From a virus (taxonomy: Duplodnaviria > Caudoviricetes), in IMG/VR virus record IMGVR_UViG_3300023108_000002: a stretch of 64,000 nt of DNA. The stretch is one strand, 5' to 3'. Position numbers and translations under genes: made by a program. Shown here in pieces: positions 7,198 to 35,963 of this stretch. How positions within the stretch are numbered: position 1 is the first letter of the stretch; every line of letters starts with the position of its first letter. The notes under the pieces were generated by a model. It was given only the letters and a program-made list of their open reading frames with translations. It searched no databases and was not told the origin of the DNA.

Positions 7198-7476
7198 ATG
7201 GGAAAACCATTAAACAAATTACAACAACTAATGACTATCACTATGGAAGAATGTGGAGAACTGACACAGGCTTGTAGTAAAATTATTCGAAAATTCAGAT
7301 ATAGAGAAGAAATCTGGGAAGAGAAACGAAAAACTCTAATAGAAGAGATTGGTGATGTTCAGTGTATGATTGAACTGATGATAGATCATGGAATTGTGAC
7401 ACATAAAGAAATTGCTGAGAGGTCAGAGATAAAGAGAGATAAACTAAAAAAGTGGAGTGATTTGATCGATGGTTAG
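7198..7476 (+). CDS. mazG: MazG-like nucleotide pyrophosphohydrolase
   Basis: MEECGELTQACSK and LIEEIGDV EExxE/D motifs. Confidence 0.8.
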   Translation: MGKPLNKLQQLMTITMEECGELTQACSKIIRKFRYREEIWEEKRKTLIEEIGDVQCMIELMIDHGIVTHKEIAERSEIKRDKLKKWSDLIDG

Positions 7477-7634: not shown

Positions 7635-8225
7635 ATGGCAAATAACGTATATGCAACATTAACTTTACATCAAGGAAATGATGAAGTAAAGCAATGGTGG
7701 AAAGACTTAGTAAGTAAAATGACATATCCAGAAGATGAGAGGCCCTCTGAATATGATTTTTACAAACCAATTCATGAAATGTTTTGGACAGATATAGATG
7801 AAGAATTTACAAGCACCAGAGGTTGGTATATTGACAATATTGGTGCAAAATGGTGTAACATTCAAGATGCCGATGATGAAATGTTATCTACATGTTCTGC
7901 CTGGGATATTCCAGAATATCTCTATGAAAGAATTGCAGAAGAGGCATATGAGGTGGATAAAAATGCAATCTTCACAGTTTCGTATGAAGATGAAATGCCA
8001 AACTTTTTTGGTTCTTCTGTGTATTTTGGTGGAGAATGTTTTGAAGATATTCGTCTTGAGTCAGATGATTTTGAAGAATATGACTTGGAATTTTATTGGG
8101 ATGAAGATGAAAAGGGCGAAGAACAGCCAGACGATTGGGAAGCCTCATGGGAACAGATGAATAACTTACAGTGGGATTGGATCGAAGAGGCCATATCTAA
8201 CATTCAGTTTGAGTTGGATGTATAA
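7635..8225 (+). CDS. Acidic protein with YubB/DUF1281-type ferredoxin-like fold
   Basis: WYIDNIGAKW...SAWDIP...YEDEM pattern resembles the WxxxNWGTKW...TAWxPP family signature. Confidence 0.5.
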   Translation: MANNVYATLTLHQGNDEVKQWWKDLVSKMTYPEDERPSEYDFYKPIHEMFWTDIDEEFTSTRGWYIDNIGAKWCNIQDADDEMLSTCSAWDIPEYLYERIAEEAYEVDKNAIFTVSYEDEMPNFFGSSVYFGGECFEDIRLESDDFEEYDLEFYWDEDEKGEEQPDDWEASWEQMNNLQWDWIEEAISNIQFELDV

Positions 8226-9400
8226 TGAGAATTGAACCAGAGTTAAAACTTGATTACAGTAGTGTCCTTATTCGACCAAAAAGAAGTGCTTTGACAAGTC
8301 GTAAAGAAGTTGATCTCACACGAAGGTTCATATTTAGAAACTACAGACCAACATATACTTCGTCTGAACTTCCACATGGATATCCAGCACATAAAGATTA
8401 TCATTATGAAGGCATTCCTATCATGGCTGCTAATATGGATGGTGTTGGAACATTCAAGATGGCAGATGTTTTGGGTAAATTAGGATTGTTTACTTGTTTA
8501 AAGAAAAATTATAAAGTTCCAGAGTTGGTGGATTTCTTTGATAATCCAAACTATCCATGGCGTCCTACACATACAGCATATTCTATGGGCATTGTGGAAG
8601 AAGATTTGAATAAGTTTCGCAAAGTTTATGAAATGACAGATAATAAAATATCATATGTCTGCGTGGATGTGGCAAATGGATACACAGAGAGATTTGTCAA
8701 TTTCATATCAGAACTGAGAAGCACATTTCCAGAATTAGTAATTATTGCCGGTAATGTAGTTACAGCAGATCAAACACAGGAGTTAATACTAAATGGAGCA
8801 GATATTGTCAAAGTTGGGATCGGGCCTGGTTCAGTTTGTACGACCCGTATACAAACTGGTGTTGGTTATCCTCAATTATCCGCAGTCATTGAGTGTGCGG
8901 ATGCTGCTCATGGGCTTGGTGGGCATATTATTGCTGATGGTGGTTGCACAACTCCTGGCGACATAGCCAAAGCATTTGCTGGTGGCGCAGATTTTGTTAT
9001 GTTAGGCGGAATGTTTGCCGGCCATAATGAAGGGGGTGGTGAAATCATTGAAAAATGGTATGAGACAGATGAGGTATTGGTTTATGCCACTAAGAATGAT
9101 TTTACTACACCAACCAAGAAATCGATTTATTCCAAACAATTTGTGCATTTTTATGGAATGAGTTCAGAGACTGCAAATAGAAAGCATTCTGGTGGATTAA
9201 AGAACTATCGTTCATCAGAAGGTAGAGAAGTAATGGTTCCATATCAGGGCCCCGTAGAAATGACTGTTCAAAATATTTTGGGTGGTATTAGGAGCACTTG
9301 TACTTATGTTGGAGCGTCAAAGCTAAAAAGACTAAGTAAGTGTACAACCTTTGTTATGTGTCAAGATACTCATAACCGAATCTACGAAGGGAAAAATTAA
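8225..9400 (+). CDS. guaC: GMP reductase
   Basis: [15 protein letters not shown]-terminus, DVANGY, catalytic [23 protein letters not shown]. Confidence 0.95.
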
Positions 9401-14752: not shown

Positions 14753-15724
14753 ATGTTTAGATTTTTTAAAGAGCGAAAGTGGTTATTATGGAGTTGGATT
14801 GGTTCCGCAATAATCTTATCATCACTTTGGGTACAAGTACAAATTGATGTAAAAATTAATGAATGGTTTGGACAGTTTTACGACATGATCCAAAGGGCAT
14901 TAGCAGAACCTAATGCCATTACAATAGGAGAATATTGGGCCAGTCTAGCGTCCTTTATTACACTCGCAGCAATATATGTTGCAATTGCAGTCGCAATATC
15001 GTTTTTCACAGCACATTATCTGTTTAGATGGCGAACCGCAATGGTAGAATGGTATCATTCTGTCTATGATAAGGCTAGAACTATCGAAGGTGCTGCTCAA
15101 CGTGTGCAAGAAGATACTATCAAGTTTAGTAGAATTATGGAAGGCCTTGGTACTAGTTTTATTGAGTCCATTATGGTATTGATACAATTTGTGCCTATTT
15201 TACTTGGATTGAGTGTGGGAATTCCCATCTTTTTCTTTGGTGATTGGCAATACGGACTTGTAACAGGTGCATTAGTCTGGTCGATTGGGGGCACATTATT
15301 CCTCGTTGGGTTGGGATGGTTGCTGAGACTTGTAGGTGTTGAATATGACTTGCAAAAGAAAGAGGCTGCATATCGTAAAATTCTGGTGATTGCAGAGGAC
15401 GATGAGACAGTCAGGCCTAAAACTATTGAAGAATTGTTTGAAGGTGTCAGAGGCATTCATTTTAAATCCTATATAAGATACCTATACTTCAATATAGGTA
15501 GAATTGCATACTTACAGGCAAATGTCTTGAGTGCTTATGTGTTTCTTGCCCCCGCTATTGTTGCTGGTGCAGTCACATTGGGTGTAATGCAACAAATTAT
15601 TCGGGCGTTTGGTAGAGTAGAAGGTTCTATGCAGTATTTACTAAAAGCATGGCCTACCATTATTGAATTAATGAGTGTCTACAAACGACTAAGAGAATTT
15701 GAAAGACAGATACAGGAGAAATAA
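14753..15724 (+). CDS. sbmA: SbmA/BacA-like peptide transporter
   Basis: INEWFGQFYDMIQRAL, YLFRWRTAM, IEGAAQRVQEDT, YLYFN motifs; multi-TM without an ATPase domain. Confidence 0.88.
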   Translation: MFRFFKERKWLLWSWIGSAIILSSLWVQVQIDVKINEWFGQFYDMIQRALAEPNAITIGEYWASLASFITLAAIYVAIAVAISFFTAHYLFRWRTAMVEWYHSVYDKARTIEGAAQRVQEDTIKFSRIMEGLGTSFIESIMVLIQFVPILLGLSVGIPIFFFGDWQYGLVTGALVWSIGGTLFLVGLGWLLRLVGVEYDLQKKEAAYRKILVIAEDDETVRPKTIEELFEGVRGIHFKSYIRYLYFNIGRIAYLQANVLSAYVFLAPAIVAGAVTLGVMQQIIRAFGRVEGSMQYLLKAWPTIIELMSVYKRLREFERQIQEK

Positions 15725-21815: not shown

Positions 21816-22022
21816 ATGAACCTACCTCTTGAAATTGGCCAGTCATTCATTCGTCGCTATTCAGACTATGTTGCAACAGGAGAGATCACTTCGATTTCCA
21901 CTGATGCCGATGACGAAACTCTGATCACTGTGATGTTTGACGATGGTGCGGTAAAAGTCTACACCGAAAACTGCATAGAGCAAAACTTGGGCCGCCGCAT
22001 GATAGTTTTAGATGATGCATAA
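21816..22022 (+). CDS. Hypothetical early protein, 68 aa
   Basis: Own promoter; AAGGA RBS. Confidence 0.7.
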   Translation: MNLPLEIGQSFIRRYSDYVATGEITSISTDADDETLITVMFDDGAVKVYTENCIEQNLGRRMIVLDDA

Positions 22023-22197
22023 TTTCTCGCTTCTAGATTGTATGATGATACTCATATTTTCTCACTTGCTTTATTTTAGTGTTCTACTTCTATTTCTCAC
22101 AGGAAGTCCAGGCGCAACAATTCTCGGCTGGTTCTTTTGGGAGATATGGAAAGGTTATGAAAAATGGAGATTGACAAATGACAACTATTTTACATAA
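22012..22197 (+). CDS. Hypothetical membrane protein, 61 aa
   Basis: Hydrophobic; overlapping operon. Confidence 0.5.
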   Translation: MMHNFSLLDCMMILIFSHLLYFSVLLLFLTGSPGATILGWFFWEIWKGYEKWRLTNDNYFT

Positions 22198-22438
22198 GTC
22201 TGGCCCACAACCTTGGGAAGCCAACAAACAAACTTCATCTTCCAACAAGCCTCCATACGCAATCATGATCGAGTTCGATAATGACGAATGGATGTATGTC
22301 TGTGAAGGATCACAATGGCAAGAATCAAAGGACAATCCAGTACTCTATGATACATATGAAGAAGCTCTAGAAGCATCTAAAGTCTGGAATAATCCTCGCA
22401 TAGTTTCTTATCATATTTCCGCTGCTGACCGCGGCTAG
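22178..22438 (+). CDS. Hypothetical protein, 86 aa
   Basis: GGAG RBS; co-directional. Confidence 0.6.
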   Translation: MTTILHKSGPQPWEANKQTSSSNKPPYAIMIEFDNDEWMYVCEGSQWQESKDNPVLYDTYEEALEASKVWNNPRIVSYHISAADRG

Positions 22439-22707
22439 ACCGGAGCCCATTTTCTCTCTTTCTAAGGAGTTTCAAATGATACGAGAAAGGGTTTCACAAT
22501 GAGGAAGAATTTTGCCTTTTTTGGAGTAAATTATATATAACTGTATGACAGGATTTATGAAGAAAAGAAAAGGTAAATATATTGCATATGACGCCAATGG
22601 AAAGGTGCTCATAATCTCACGATCTTTGACTGTATGTAAGGAAGTCTTAGCGAGTATAATGAATAATGAAAGAGAACATTTGAATGAATCAGAAAAAGAA
22701 AAATATT

Positions 22708-23007
22708 ATGCAAGGATACGACAAGAAGAAACATCCGATACTTGAGCTTGAACAGAACATCTTAGACTGTTGGAAAGTCTGTGATGATATTGACTTGGTC
22801 TGGAAGGAAATGTATGATGGAAATCCAGAACCAACTGAAGATCAGATTGCCAATGCTATGATAGGATTGAATCAGATCTATGAGTGGAAATTTCAGAGAC
22901 TTTGGAATAATTTCGAAGAAGTCTTGAAGAAGAATTCCGAGCCGCCGGATACCCATGAGAATGATGGCGAGAATTGGGAAAAATGGAGATTGAATGATGG
23001 AGATTGA
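22708..23007 (+). CDS. Hypothetical protein
   Basis: Helical acidic ORF; start uncertain (22684 or 22708). Confidence 0.6.
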   Translation: MQGYDKKKHPILELEQNILDCWKVCDDIDLVWKEMYDGNPEPTEDQIANAMIGLNQIYEWKFQRLWNNFEEVLKKNSEPPDTHENDGENWEKWRLNDGD

Positions 23008-23198
23008 TGGGAAAAGATGGGGAAAATTGGGATTCTTAGGGATATGATTTTCAGGAATCCGCTGCAGATTCTAGCTTTTGGGGGTTTAGCGAATATTTGA
23101 GACTGTTGAGTAAATCCCCCAGCCTTTTTTCTGAGCCGCCTGAGAGATGCCGCTGAGAATTTCTGCCAAAATATTTTAAAAAAAATGCCGAATTGCCC

Positions 23199-23227
23199 TT
23201 GACATTTCATTGCGAATCACTTATATT
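23199..23227 (+). promoter_or_regulatory. Early promoter with GANTC 3 bp upstream of the -10 element; no downstream ORF
   Basis: CCTTGACA-N17-TATATT; CGAATCA at 23213-23219. Confidence 0.88.
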
Positions 23228-23237
23228 AATATATGTA

Positions 23238-23454
23238 AGAAGAAAAGATTTTAGACTCTTTTCCTCATATGTCCGTGCGGAGGGCAGGCCACCTGAAAGC
23301 ACGATCTCTGGTGAATATATTCGCCCGTGAAATATCGGTGACGTGAAACCCAGAGATGTTAGTTTCAATCAAACTAGAGCGGCAACGTCAATAAGTCCGT
23401 GCGGAGAGATTGGAGATACTAGCTGGGCGTATGAGGAAAAAAGTTTTTCTTCTT
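23238..23454 (+). ncRNA. Candidate structured ncRNA, about 217 nt, family not identified
   Basis: 16-bp helix 23259-23274/23425-23440; outer helix 23238-23247/23445-23454; inner helices 23304-23311/23350-23357 and 23360-23365/23371-23376; GTCCGTGCGGAG twice; promoter upstream and terminator downstream. Confidence 0.7.
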
Positions 23455-23484
23455 TTCCCTGTCTCCTTTCTATATGGGTAACTT

Positions 23485-23517
23485 AGAGCAGTCCTTCTTT
23501 GGCTGCTCTTTTTTTTT
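23485..23517 (+). terminator. Intrinsic terminator
   Basis: AGAGCAG...CTGCTCT stem followed by a long T tract. Confidence 0.85.
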
Positions 23518-23538
23518 GAAAAAAGTTTTAAAAAGCTC

Positions 23539-23567
23539 TTGACAGTGGCCGATTATAATGTTACTAT
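23539..23567 (+). promoter_or_regulatory. Sigma70-type promoter
   Basis: TTGACA-N17-TACTAT; no GANTC. Confidence 0.75.
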
Positions 23568-23600
23568 GGCTATGCTAGCCAATAATGATTAGGAGATTAA

Positions 23601-23873
23601 ATGAGTATCGAATCATTAGCAGAAATTGCTGAATTAAATGCCTTACATGGAGTCTCTCCAGAAGAAGCTAGATTGAAATTCTTTGAGAATTTAAATGCTT
23701 CAATCATCAGAGATTACTTTGAAAAAGATATGGCATGTCCCTGTGATGAATGCCCATTAAGAGACTCTTGTGCAGAGAGTTATGCAGAGTGTTCAGCATT
23801 TAGAAACTGGGCAGTAAAAGGACAATACGATGAGGCCACAATTGGAAAACATTTGAGAGTTCCTAAAGACTGA
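23601..23873 (+). CDS. Cys-rich metal-binding hypothetical protein, 90 aa
   Basis: CPCDECPLRDSC...EC; monocistronic between a promoter and a terminator. Confidence 0.7.
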   Translation: MSIESLAEIAELNALHGVSPEEARLKFFENLNASIIRDYFEKDMACPCDECPLRDSCAESYAECSAFRNWAVKGQYDEATIGKHLRVPKD

Positions 23874-23894
23874 CCTTAGAAGAAAGTTTCTATC

Positions 23895-23926
23895 AAAAAA
23901 CCCTCTAGAGATTCTAGAGGGTTTTT
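23895..23926. terminator. Bidirectional intrinsic terminator
   Basis: AAAAACCCTCTAGA-GAT-TCTAGAGGGTTTTT. Confidence 0.85.
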
Positions 23927-24310
23927 GCGTATCTGGGGGTGACTTCAAGCTAAAAGCTTATGAGCAATTATTTATAATTCTGTGAATCTCATCTGCTAGA
24001 AATGAATAGAAAAGTTACAAAGAGTGCCCATATGAGCATCTTTTAGAGAGTTTCTGAGAGTTTCTGAAGTAGGGTCCCGGCAAAGCTTTCGTACAGCTTT
24101 AGCTCAGTTTAGCTTTCGTGACTTGAATTAGATACCCCCCTAAACCTCAGCGTGTATCTTTAAATTTGTGGGTTCCCATCTGGAATGAGGCGGAAGTGTA
24201 TAGCACCAGCCCCCCAGAATCTTTCAGTGTTTCTAAAAGTTTTTCCGAAAAAAATTTTTTTTGCTGGCTAAAAACCCAAAACCCTTTTTGGTAAGATCCT
24301 ACATATTCAC

Positions 24311-24652
24311 ATGGAAGTCAAAGAGGCATATCGTTTGTTCTGGCTCGTCAAGGGTCATTTGAATTCTCCACACGAAACCATCATGGCATCTGCGAATGGA
24401 TATTTCAAAAGAGTCTGGTATGATTTCGCGGGAGAGGATATGTCTATATGGGAAGTGGGGTTTGAAGAAGAATGGGAGAGAGTTATGTCTTTTCAAGCAC
24501 AAAAAGAAATCATCTATCATTTGACTTGTAAGGTCTGTAAGGGATATTTTACTTATGCTACTATGAATGAGCATTATGATATAGAAAGAGGCCACATGTA
24601 TTGTCCTACATGCGGCCATAGTGGTTCTGCTAAGTTAGAAGAAAGTGTTTAG
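24311..24652 (+). CDS. Hypothetical protein with a C-terminal Zn ribbon (possibly two fused small genes)
   Basis: CKVC...CPTC; internal Met (MSFQAQKE) could be a second start. Confidence 0.6.
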   Translation: MEVKEAYRLFWLVKGHLNSPHETIMASANGYFKRVWYDFAGEDMSIWEVGFEEEWERVMSFQAQKEIIYHLTCKVCKGYFTYATMNEHYDIERGHMYCPTCGHSGSAKLEESV

Positions 24653-24734
24653 TAGAGATACATAGAGATCAGTCCTATGATAAGGACGATTGAGAAAATT
24701 TCAGAAGAGACTTCTATCAAGAGGTCTTTTAGCA

Positions 24735-24905
24735 TCACTGTGTTCCTTCTAGTTGTTGTAGACACATTTCAAAATCGGCAATCATTCCTTCCGCGGCTTC
24801 TACAGCACGGGAATCTCCCATTGCGCGATACTCTAAGATATTTTGACGACAAGCATCAATGTATCCAAGGATTGAGTTACGAAAATTTTCAACTTCAGTA
24901 GACAT
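24735..24905 (-). CDS. Hypothetical early protein, 56 aa
   Basis: Hand-found (MSTEVENFRNSILGYIDAC...); own promoter and AAAGGTGATTCGAAATG RBS. Confidence 0.7.
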   Translation of the reverse strand: MSTEVENFRNSILGYIDACRQNILEYRAMGDSRAVEAAEGMIADFEMCLQQLEGTQ

Positions 24906-24963
24906 TTCGAATCACCTTTCTTTGTCACTCTACTATGTTATGATATTTGTAGAGAGCTGTCAA
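24906..24963 (-). promoter_or_regulatory. Early promoter/RBS cassette (inverted)
   Basis: TTGACA-N17-TAACAT; AGGTGATTCGAA before the ATG. Confidence 0.85.
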
Positions 24964-24971
24964 GAGCAAAA

Positions 24972-25169
24972 TTAGCAAAAGACAACTCTCAAAACTTCAC
25001 CTCTTTCGCCGAAGAGTGTGTGAACAACTCTGTGAAGATGCCTTTGTGCGAGTCTGCATTCGAACCATGCTTCCGCTTCTGCCAAAGTCTCAACAACAAG
25101 AGCAGGCATTGCCAAAGTTCCCATCACAGGACACAAAGTGGTGATCGTAGTTCTTACTTCATATGTCAT
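24972..25169 (-). CDS. Hypothetical early protein, 65 aa
   Basis: Own promoter/RBS cassette. Confidence 0.7.
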   Translation of the reverse strand: MTYEVRTTITTLCPVMGTLAMPALVVETLAEAEAWFECRLAQRHLHRVVHTLFGERGEVLRVVFC

Positions 25170-35201: not shown

Positions 35202-35227
35202 TATATTTGCAATACTTTAAAAAAGTG

Positions 35228-35258
35228 TTGACATGTCGTAATAATTGTGGTATAAATA
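35228..35258 (+). promoter_or_regulatory. Combined sigma70 and T4 late promoter upstream of the tmRNA
   Basis: TTGACA-N17-TATAAA, where the -10 is part of TATAAATA. Confidence 0.85.
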
Positions 35259-35261
35259 AAT

Positions 35262-35585
35262 TCGTAATTGTTGATGCAATTCAAAACACATACTGGACTT
35301 GGGGGCAGTACCCAACGCCTCCACCATAAATGCACTATGTCCTGCTGCATCAGGAAGTTATGCAGAACATAGGTTGCCCACGATGGGACGCCGAAGTTAG
35401 TGCATTTTTGATGGGGGCGAACTAGGATCGACAGGTGAGTAGAGATGAGTGGAGATTACCGTGGTGGCTTACGATATTCGGCCAACTAAACTAAATGCAA
35501 ACGATAATTTTGCACCTTCTGAGTTCGCTCTAGCAGCGTAACCACAGGGGGTTGGCCACTCACCTAGCAACAGAAGAAGTGGCGC
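35262..35585 (+). ncRNA. ssrA: Two-piece (circularly permuted) tmRNA; outer ends approximate
   Basis: Acceptor piece ends GGGGGCAGTACCCAACGCCTCCACCA (35326); coding piece starts GGGGGCG (35413) giving the G3:U70 pair; tag frame 35497-35541 reads ANDNFAPSEFALAA*. Confidence 0.92.
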
Positions 35586-35609
35586 TCATAATAAAAAGGA
35601 ATAACAAAA

Positions 35610-35963
35610 ATGAGAAGTATTATTTTGTCAGGTGCATTTGCACTTGTATTGGCAAGTTCGGCCGCAGCGATGGAACTTGGAAACGGTCTTTCATGGAACA
35701 ATGAAGTGACAGCAGAAAGAAATTTGGAAACAGAAACAAATAGCTTTACATTTGAAACTGATGTTGCATGGGATTTTGGATTGGGTACTTTAGAAGTCGG
35801 CCCAAATGTATTTGATCTTGAAAATATTGAATGGACTTCAACAGAATACCAAGTAACTATGCCAGTCAAATTTCTTGATGGCGCAGAAGTTTTTACAAAA
35901 ACATCTACCAATAGTGATTGGGAAATTGGTGACGTAACAATCGGCGCATCTTTCACATTCTAA
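35610..35963 (+). CDS. Small outer-membrane beta-barrel-like protein
   Basis: Signal peptide ending AAA, amphipathic beta pattern, C-terminal GASFTF (terminal Phe). Confidence 0.65.
   Translation: MRSIILSGAFALVLASSAAAMELGNGLSWNNEVTAERNLETETNSFTFETDVAWDFGLGTLEVGPNVFDLENIEWTSTEYQVTMPVKFLDGAEVFTKTSTNSDWEIGDVTIGASFTF

Follow-up and report, generated by a model that had tools for sequence, protein, structure and literature searches.

The DNA analysed here, a stretch of 64,000 nucleotides (64 kb) that we refer to as the window, is part of the genome of an uncultured T4-like myophage, in which Pfam identifies the baseplate proteins gp5, gp6, gp8 and gp53. Among cultured phages, Ochrobactrum phage vB_OspM_OC is the closest by gp8, at 32% amino-acid identity. 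Few viruses on Earth are as abundant as the uncultured T4-like phages that infect marine, estuarine and freshwater bacteria, and to our knowledge almost nothing is known of their non-coding RNAs. Metagenomes from salt marsh and fresh water contain near-identical DNA, and metatranscriptomes from salt marsh, sea and fresh water contain parts of it. The window also contains a two-piece (permuted) tmRNA of the alphaproteobacterial type at 35213–35632, whose tag ANDNFAPSEFALAA is nearly identical to one in locus L048, and six tRNAs (Arg, Gly, Pro, Asn, Thr and Leu) between 30742 and 32335. Among its protein genes are those for an SbmA/BacA-like transporter (14753–15724; E 1e-139), an enzyme of the IMPDH/GMP-reductase family (8225–9400) and a small MazG-like pyrophosphohydrolase (7201–7473).

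The segment 23199–23518 is confirmed to consist of a sigma-70-type promoter, a structured RNA region without an ORF, and an intrinsic terminator (Table 1). A first-pass annotation had proposed that a GANTC-bearing promoter and a strong terminator bracket a dedicated transcription unit at this site, and both signals were recovered by our scans, with the GANTC word (GAATC) at 23214–23218 within the promoter spacer. The 7-kb early region that surrounds the unit is rich in such promoters, with 39 sigma-70-like sites against 19.8 expected, twice the expected frequency. The predicted primary transcript is about 283 nt long (about 23235–23518) and encloses a conserved core of 192 nt (23254–23445); these two figures replace the RNA size of roughly 217 nt given at first.

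Table 1. Predicted features of the RNA transcription unit, in window coordinates.
Feature	Position	Strand	Description	Basis
Promoter	23199–23227	+	sigma-70-type early promoter, TTGACA-17-TATATT	promoter scan, 11/12 matches
5′ leader	23234–23253	+	leader of the predicted transcript	fold and inverted-repeat scan; not kept in relatives
P1, 5′ strand	23254–23274	+	21 nt; base ACU and top AUAUGUCC fit the conserved positions of the family	alignment, covariation
P2	23275–23302	+	GUGC/GCAC stem, internal loop GGA opposite GAAA, 3-bp stem, variable loop	comparative
P3	23303–23357	+	long accessory arm, AUCUCUGG/CCAGAGAU closing an inner module	comparative
P4	23358–23363 / 23418–23423 (within 23358–23423)	+		comparative
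P4a	23364–23370 / 23408–23414 (within 23358–23423)	+		comparative
P5	23379–23382 / 23397–23400 (within 23358–23423)	+	conserved loop AACGUCAAUAAG	comparative
P1, 3′ strand	23425–23445	+	GAGGAAAAAAG in the window, GAGGAAAGGAG in close relatives	alignment
Tail	23446–23484	+	C/U-rich, including UCUCCUUUC; spacer between core and terminator	sequence; not kept in relatives
Terminator	23485–23518	+	intrinsic; 9-bp stem (23485–23509, five G–C pairs), 7-nt loop, U9	terminator scan

Folding of the plus strand gives a minimum free energy of −95.6 kcal/mol (z = −4.5), and none of 200 shuffled sequences folds as well. The first-pass annotation had described a long terminal helix, and this proved to be the dominant feature of the RNA: its arms, 23242–23274 and 23425–23457, are the longest inverted repeat in the whole window, and 21 bp of it (23254–23274 / 23425–23445) are conserved in the family described below. 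We refer to these 21 bp as P1. The outward extension of the helix, in which leader nucleotides 23242–23248 pair with 23451–23457, is specific to the window and is missing from the relatives. The 12-mer GTCCGTGCGGAG does occur twice, at 23271 and 23395, as had been noticed, with 0 occurrences expected by chance. An exact search of IMG/VR for both 12-mers together gave no match; because relatives differ in the second copy, only the window has the repeat in its perfect form.

The inner helices originally suggested fared unequally when related sequences were compared. The helix 23304–23311 / 23350–23357 is supported by covariation and forms part of P3. The local hairpin 23360–23365 / 23371–23376 finds no support, the comparative data favouring the long-range helices P4 and P4a, and the GGTGAATATATTCGCC hairpin has a register that relatives do not keep. 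We therefore rejected both hairpins and replaced them with long-range helices.

Two complementarities are recorded here as side observations. The P5 loop, which reads AAYGUCAAUAAG family-wide (23384–23395 in the window), complements a TTGACR −35-type word (CTTATTGACRTT) exactly, and this may be coincidence. The single-stranded tail at 23446–23484, with its UCUCCUUUC motif, is complementary to the GAAAGGAGA ribosome-binding sites usual in this phage; this window-specific tail also looks like a second, truncated 5′ strand of P1.

The starting lead to relatives came from RNA-library contigs of two studies that are identical to 23283–23466; being assembled contigs, they cannot show transcript ends or rank expression, and DNA carry-over is possible, and we drew no evidence from their depth or from window parts that they leave uncovered. 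Variant metatranscriptome contigs keep the core within other flanks, including some with a Shine–Dalgarno sequence plus ATG, and run into a downstream ORF. A 26-mer from the invariant part retrieved three IMG/VR contigs in which 193 nt (23254–23446) are 92–97% identical to the window copy and the flanks do not align. A degenerate pattern over the top of P1 and P2 then found the RNA in 79 stretches of IMG/VR and in at least 120 from metagenomes. Among the matches listed from IMG/VR and metagenomes, 194 instances have an intact terminal helix and represent 118 distinct cores of 102–217 nt; the family is also present in Tara and GOS-type assemblies.

Searches of phage records and of cellular genomes returned nothing. 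Distant-mode blastn of 22000–25000 against 50,697 phage records gave no match, and the family model found no copy in T4, Pelagibacter phage HTVC008M or Ochrobactrum phage vB_OspM_OC, with a tool that recovered the RNA from all five positive contigs. The motif had 0 matches in one genome per species from 185,579 bacterial and archaeal species, an exact-pattern search that diverged copies could escape. Loci found via two neighbouring small proteins contain no copy of the RNA by nhmmer or blastn, and synteny with these proteins is not conserved. Run with filters off, the family model detects the RNA once in the 64-kb window, and there is one copy in each of five phage contigs of 87–275 kb, one of which is 91% complete. 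Locus L043 has two tandem paralogues, the shorter directly behind the first, so single copy is not absolute. The many copies that would mark a repeated cassette or mobile repeat of the PeSL or MITE type were not found in these genomes.

The RNA is also absent from the catalogues. No Rfam 15 family reaches its gathering threshold for the element, and the whole window yields only the tRNAs and the tmRNA. When the limit was relaxed to E up to 10, the best hit in the region was GcvB, at 21 bits against a 42-bit cutoff and driven by the terminator; the minimal and three-way variants described below returned miRNA-precursor noise only. The Rfam covariance models thus matched neither the window copy nor the two other variants, as the first reading had been unable to match it to a tRNA, tmRNA, RNase P or riboswitch, and literature searches found no description of such an RNA. 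We conclude that 23254–23445 is the gene of a new phage-specific, single-copy family of structured non-coding RNA. This uncatalogued family is common to well over a hundred uncultured T4-like aquatic phages.

RNAalifold together with a covariance model defined 47 base pairs. In the model-based alignment 98.9% of 2534 cells hold standard pairs, against 39–45% when the partners are slid by 1–3 columns. Eleven pairs have changes on both sides (120 cells), a level that 0 of 500 shuffles reached, and the signal is strand-specific, the window scoring 166 bits on the plus strand versus 20 bits on the minus strand. The comparison of homologues that had been suggested as a check thus came out in favour of a selected RNA fold.

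P1 is the backbone of the architecture. Of its 21 pairs, seven show double changes and 99% of the cells are paired; over the 118 distinct cores among the matches listed, 97.5% of 2478 cells are paired, 333 of them as G–U. The top (AUACGUCY / RGGCGUAU) and the base (ACU / AGU, UU / AA) of the helix are invariant. The middle varies freely and always in pairs, as seen in one pair that is CG in 29 sequences, UA in 24 and AU in 2, and in the next, which is UA in 26, AU in 15 and GC in 14. The length of P1 is fixed: 55 sequences have no indel in it, except that L073 has deleted one pair from both strands.

P1 carries a three- or four-way junction whose arms are retained to different degrees. P2 has a 4-bp stem, an internal loop of RGA opposite RAAA, a 3-bp stem that switches between G–C and C–G, and a loop of free sequence; 23 P2 variants among the matches listed keep this stem and loop pattern. 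P3 is optional and takes three forms: some members have a long arm there, like the window copy, others have a 15-nt hairpin bearing one of various tetraloops, and where the arm is absent a three-way junction is left. P4, P4a and P5 are strongly conserved and reducible, being trimmed to a 16-nt hairpin in some phages. In P5, additional metagenome variants among the matches listed have GCGG/CCGU changed on both sides, to GUGG/CCAU or to GCAG/CUGU, and they add double changes in P3 and P4. The head is the most conserved part of the RNA. Its helices near the junction are kept in sequence as well as in pairing, and the junction itself has almost no unpaired conserved bases. A kissing interaction between the P2 and P5 loops was rejected as a general feature: the loops are complementary in one P2-loop variant only, and the P5 loop does not follow the type of P2 loop.

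Parts of this architecture recur in other RNAs of these phages. The inner module of P3 (CUGGUGAAUAUACCGCCCGUGAAAUACCGGUGACGUGAAAACCAG) is also found in a different, larger unannotated RNA located beside tRNAs in L044, L045, L046, L047, L048 and L049, for example at about 6200–6470 of L048 on the minus strand. Contigs of this larger RNA occur in a marine metatranscriptome, and it has no Rfam match at gathering level or at E up to 1. Just before tRNA-Thr in the same locus (L048:6067–6200, minus strand) lies another RNA, which has a 23-bp closing stem (GACUCUG...CAGAGUU) and a head with a tRNA-type T arm (CAAGGUUCGAUUCCUUG); ARAGORN does not call this RNA. The foot of its stem is ACU/AGU, the same as that of P1, suggesting that a long-stem handle is common to several RNAs of these phages.

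The family comparison also bears on coding. The plus-strand ORFs inside the element are only 25–47 aa long in the ORF list, and we saw no Shine–Dalgarno sequence before them on reading the sequence. Homologues differ by one 2-nt and one 1-nt indel, and across the range of core lengths among the matches listed whole arms are gained or lost; these changes break every frame, so no reading frame is conserved. Neither mark of a small-protein gene, a frame kept in homologues and a ribosome-binding site, was found in the element, which upholds the proposal that the region lacks a gene for a protein. With the family, the strand-specific covariation, the lack of a conserved frame and the RNA-library contigs taken together, the idea of a phage non-coding RNA with its own transcription unit is well supported.

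We examined the genomic surroundings of the RNA in 136 distinct flank sets among the matches listed. On the upstream side, an ORF stops close to the base of P1 in 82 of the 136, in 73 of them at −2 to +10 nt; a sigma-70-type promoter of the RNA's own is present in 12, and the other 42 have something else, a tRNA or the contig end. On the downstream side, an ORF starts within about 6 nt of P1 in 38 flank sets and lies further on in 39, so that an ORF stands behind the element in 77 of 136 contexts (about 57%). In 11 flank sets a tRNA follows 2–9 nt away, mostly tRNA-Pro and otherwise tRNA-Thr or tRNA-Trp. No ORF was called in 43, where the next feature is mostly another early promoter within about 15 nt and in four a terminator, and five end with the contig. 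Stand-alone units with promoter and terminator occur in the window and also in L087/L098, where the TATAAT-type promoter was read by eye.

The downstream ORFs belong to several unrelated families and there is no constant neighbouring gene; the commonest flanking ORFs carry no Pfam or PHROG name. Directly behind the RNA the commonest genes are the 67–68-aa families MRTVHYVGM.. and MLHFVGFRNDNDY.. (the MLHFVGF.. relative), for example L055:982–1185 and L060:13378–13578. The window has no convincing homologue of this 67–68-aa family, nor does it contain the basic 92-aa family found upstream in relatives. The gene downstream of the RNA in the closest relatives has a homologue of 34% identity at 24972–25169 of the window, on the minus strand and 1.5 kb from the RNA, with its own TTGACA-17-TATAGT promoter (25227–25199). 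Its opposite orientation and separate promoter are consistent with cassette shuffling in the early region. The RNA has stayed 92–97% identical, while the protein formerly adjacent to it is only 34% identical.

Some neighbours of the RNA are themselves non-coding. One conserved non-coding piece, with the hairpin GGGGAGGGGCACUGCAGAAAGUCCCUCCC at its end, lies directly before the RNA in L043 (800–1000, minus strand), in L051 (upstream of 6358) and in L077/L097; its 5′ part is similar to the 3′ portion of the larger L045 RNA. In L040 (1530–1660, minus strand) a hairpin-rich insert of ~130 nt lies between the RNA and an MTWTV.. gene, whose start codon there is TTG, and the same insert is also present in several metagenome loci. 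L050 has a MazG-like gene directly behind the RNA.

The variety of contexts argues for an autonomous, processed, trans-acting stable RNA over a switch for one gene, and the single copy, the 92–97% identity amid scrambled flanks and the varied contexts together favour a stand-alone RNA gene. Our preferred reading, to which we assign a probability of roughly 0.55, is that a stable RNA is excised from early transcripts and acts in trans through its head. The phage of the window would make it from an early transcription unit of its own, and in relatives the RNA would be co-transcribed with small ORFs or tRNAs. Release could occur by an RNase III-type cut within the two-turn P1 duplex, by RNase P trimming of the 3′ side where a tRNA sits 2–9 nt behind, or, as in the window, through a dedicated promoter and terminator. 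P1 has the property expected of an RNase III substrate, a near-perfect duplex of about 20 bp or more, at a fixed 21 bp, and with its conserved ends it may serve as a handle for an RNase III-like nuclease or a binding protein. Acting through its conserved head, the RNA would then most likely either form a complex with protein or serve as a decoy to a protein of host or phage origin. The very high identity across divergent phages could also reflect recent horizontal spread rather than functional constraint.

The closest competitor, which we regard as unlikely on balance, is a cis-acting mRNA device in which P1 hides the Shine–Dalgarno sequence of the next gene until it is opened. Opening would come either from a ribosome that finishes the upstream ORF and melts the foot of P1, a form of long-range translational coupling, or from RNase III cutting P1; the head would merely join the strands or recruit the nuclease, and the window copy would be an orphan of cassette shuffling. 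The fit of stop codon, P1 and downstream Shine–Dalgarno sequence is indeed tight in many relatives. Where an ORF starts within about 6 nt of P1, its Shine–Dalgarno sequence is part of the P1 3′ strand, and GAGGAAAGGAG in close relatives is the Shine–Dalgarno sequence of their next gene. The usual GGAAAGGAG has decayed in the window to GGAAAAAAG, leaving a C–A mismatch, and the homologue of the usual downstream gene lies on the other strand. However, a plain hairpin would suffice for such a device, yet the head is the most conserved part. P1 is also fully kept, among the matches listed, before the 11 tRNAs, before a promoter in most of the 43 contexts without an ORF, and before the four terminators. 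Stand-alone units exist, and the window copy is 96–97% identical to its relatives with no gene to control.

Masking of a neighbour's ribosome-binding site would instead be a secondary, lineage-specific use of P1 by an RNA that acts in trans. In the relatives with a Shine–Dalgarno sequence in the P1 3′ strand, about a quarter to a third, excision of the RNA would also switch the next gene on, as would a ribosome that terminates translation of the upstream ORF at the P1 foot.

Tentatively, the RNA could also form the core, catalytic or protein-capturing, of a phage function that has so far not been described. Under this reading it could represent a new class of ribozyme. It could equally be a viral decoy, in which the exact two-turn duplex and the head disarm a host RNA-binding defence or RNase by a logic comparable to that of adenovirus VA RNA, or a bridge that carries ribosomes between genes across an embedded RNA gene.

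A riboswitch or protein-responsive leader, in which the junction and the P2 and P4a loops bind a metabolite or protein, stabilise P1 and shut off the downstream gene, appears improbable. The sense orientation, the multi-helix junction, the Shine–Dalgarno sequence inside P1 in many copies and the frequent 67–68-aa downstream family (MRTVHYVG.. and its relative MLHFVGF..) would all suit it. Set against these are a downstream ORF in little more than half of the contexts among the matches listed, from unrelated families, and the common tRNA, promoter and terminator contexts. Genes of one coherent function were not found downstream of the RNA in these 136 contexts. Moreover, P1 is 21 bp long, nearly perfect and far more stable than typical switch helices, the junction offers almost no unpaired conserved bases, and the window has no convincing homologue of the 68-aa gene.

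Equally doubtful is a self-cleaving ribozyme of a new class that would cut polycistronic early transcripts between genes. The RNA shares with twister, pistol, hatchet and hammerhead an intergenic, sense-strand position in phages and a conserved core with swappable arms, and its junction-near helices are conserved in sequence beyond pairing. But the universally conserved unpaired bases are few, essentially those of the P2 internal loop only, and one copy per genome allows one cut only. No Rfam model of a known ribozyme (hammerhead, twister, twister-sister, pistol, hatchet, HDV-like or hairpin) matched any of three variants at E up to 10.

The primer or R-loop RNA for a T4-style replication origin that the first-pass annotation offered would fit the single copy per genome and the early promoter, but it is very improbable, since selection keeps a folded sense-strand RNA with many G–U pairs, the element changes genome position and is frequently fused to tRNAs or ribosome-binding sites, and the relatives compared have no conserved AT-rich unwinding element adjoining.

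The RNA is widespread, occurs once per genome, is modular in the manner of ribozymes and RNP RNAs, and has hardly changed amid neighbouring genes that have diverged past recognition, which makes it a well-defined candidate for a new class of functional RNA. The natural variants form a series from minimal (about 100 nt) to full (about 215 nt) that lends itself to biochemical and structural work, and the overlap of P1 with the ribosome-binding sites of neighbours makes it possible to test, in phage early operons, a coupling between RNA processing and translation.

Several known RNAs resemble the present one in part. RNase III sites of phage early mRNAs, of the T7 R0.3/R1.1 type or in the lambda N leader, are simple hairpins that occur several times per genome. 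Like P1 they are sense-strand duplexes of about two turns between early genes, and cutting can free a masked ribosome-binding site; the present RNA differs in occurring once per genome and in having a conserved multi-helix head, and its cleavage by RNase III is only predicted. The pRNA of phi29, at 120–170 nt, is likewise a phage RNA that is transcribed from an early promoter of its own, contains a three-way junction and has its 5′ and 3′ ends joined in a long helix. Here, however, there is no Rfam pRNA match and the host phage is T4-like, not phi29-like; as far as is known to us, the packaging motor of T4-like phages needs no RNA. Y-like RNAs (YrlA), which some phages carry, also combine a long terminal stem with a multi-helix head, but in the present RNA there are neither T nor D loops like those of tRNA, Rfam gives no match, and a TROVE/Ro domain was not found by Pfam among ten large window ORFs scanned.

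The nearest parallels are orphan RNAs of phages. T4 rnaC and rnaD (the stable RNAs species 1 and 2) are small RNAs whose ends pair and which a T4-type phage encodes in association with its tRNA cluster. However, T4 rnaC folds with a tRNA-type T arm, and the present RNA has no T-loop and a fixed 21-bp stem; the family model matched neither rnaC nor rnaD in T4 69000–75000 with filters off or in the whole T4 genome. The manA, GOLLD and ROOL RNAs are, like ours, widespread in aquatic and phage metagenomes, often located beside tRNAs, strongly covarying and orphan in function. They differ in size and fold, and their Rfam models are not matched. The RNA described here is thus a new family within the orphan structured phage RNAs that T4 rnaC/rnaD, manA, GOLLD and ROOL exemplify.
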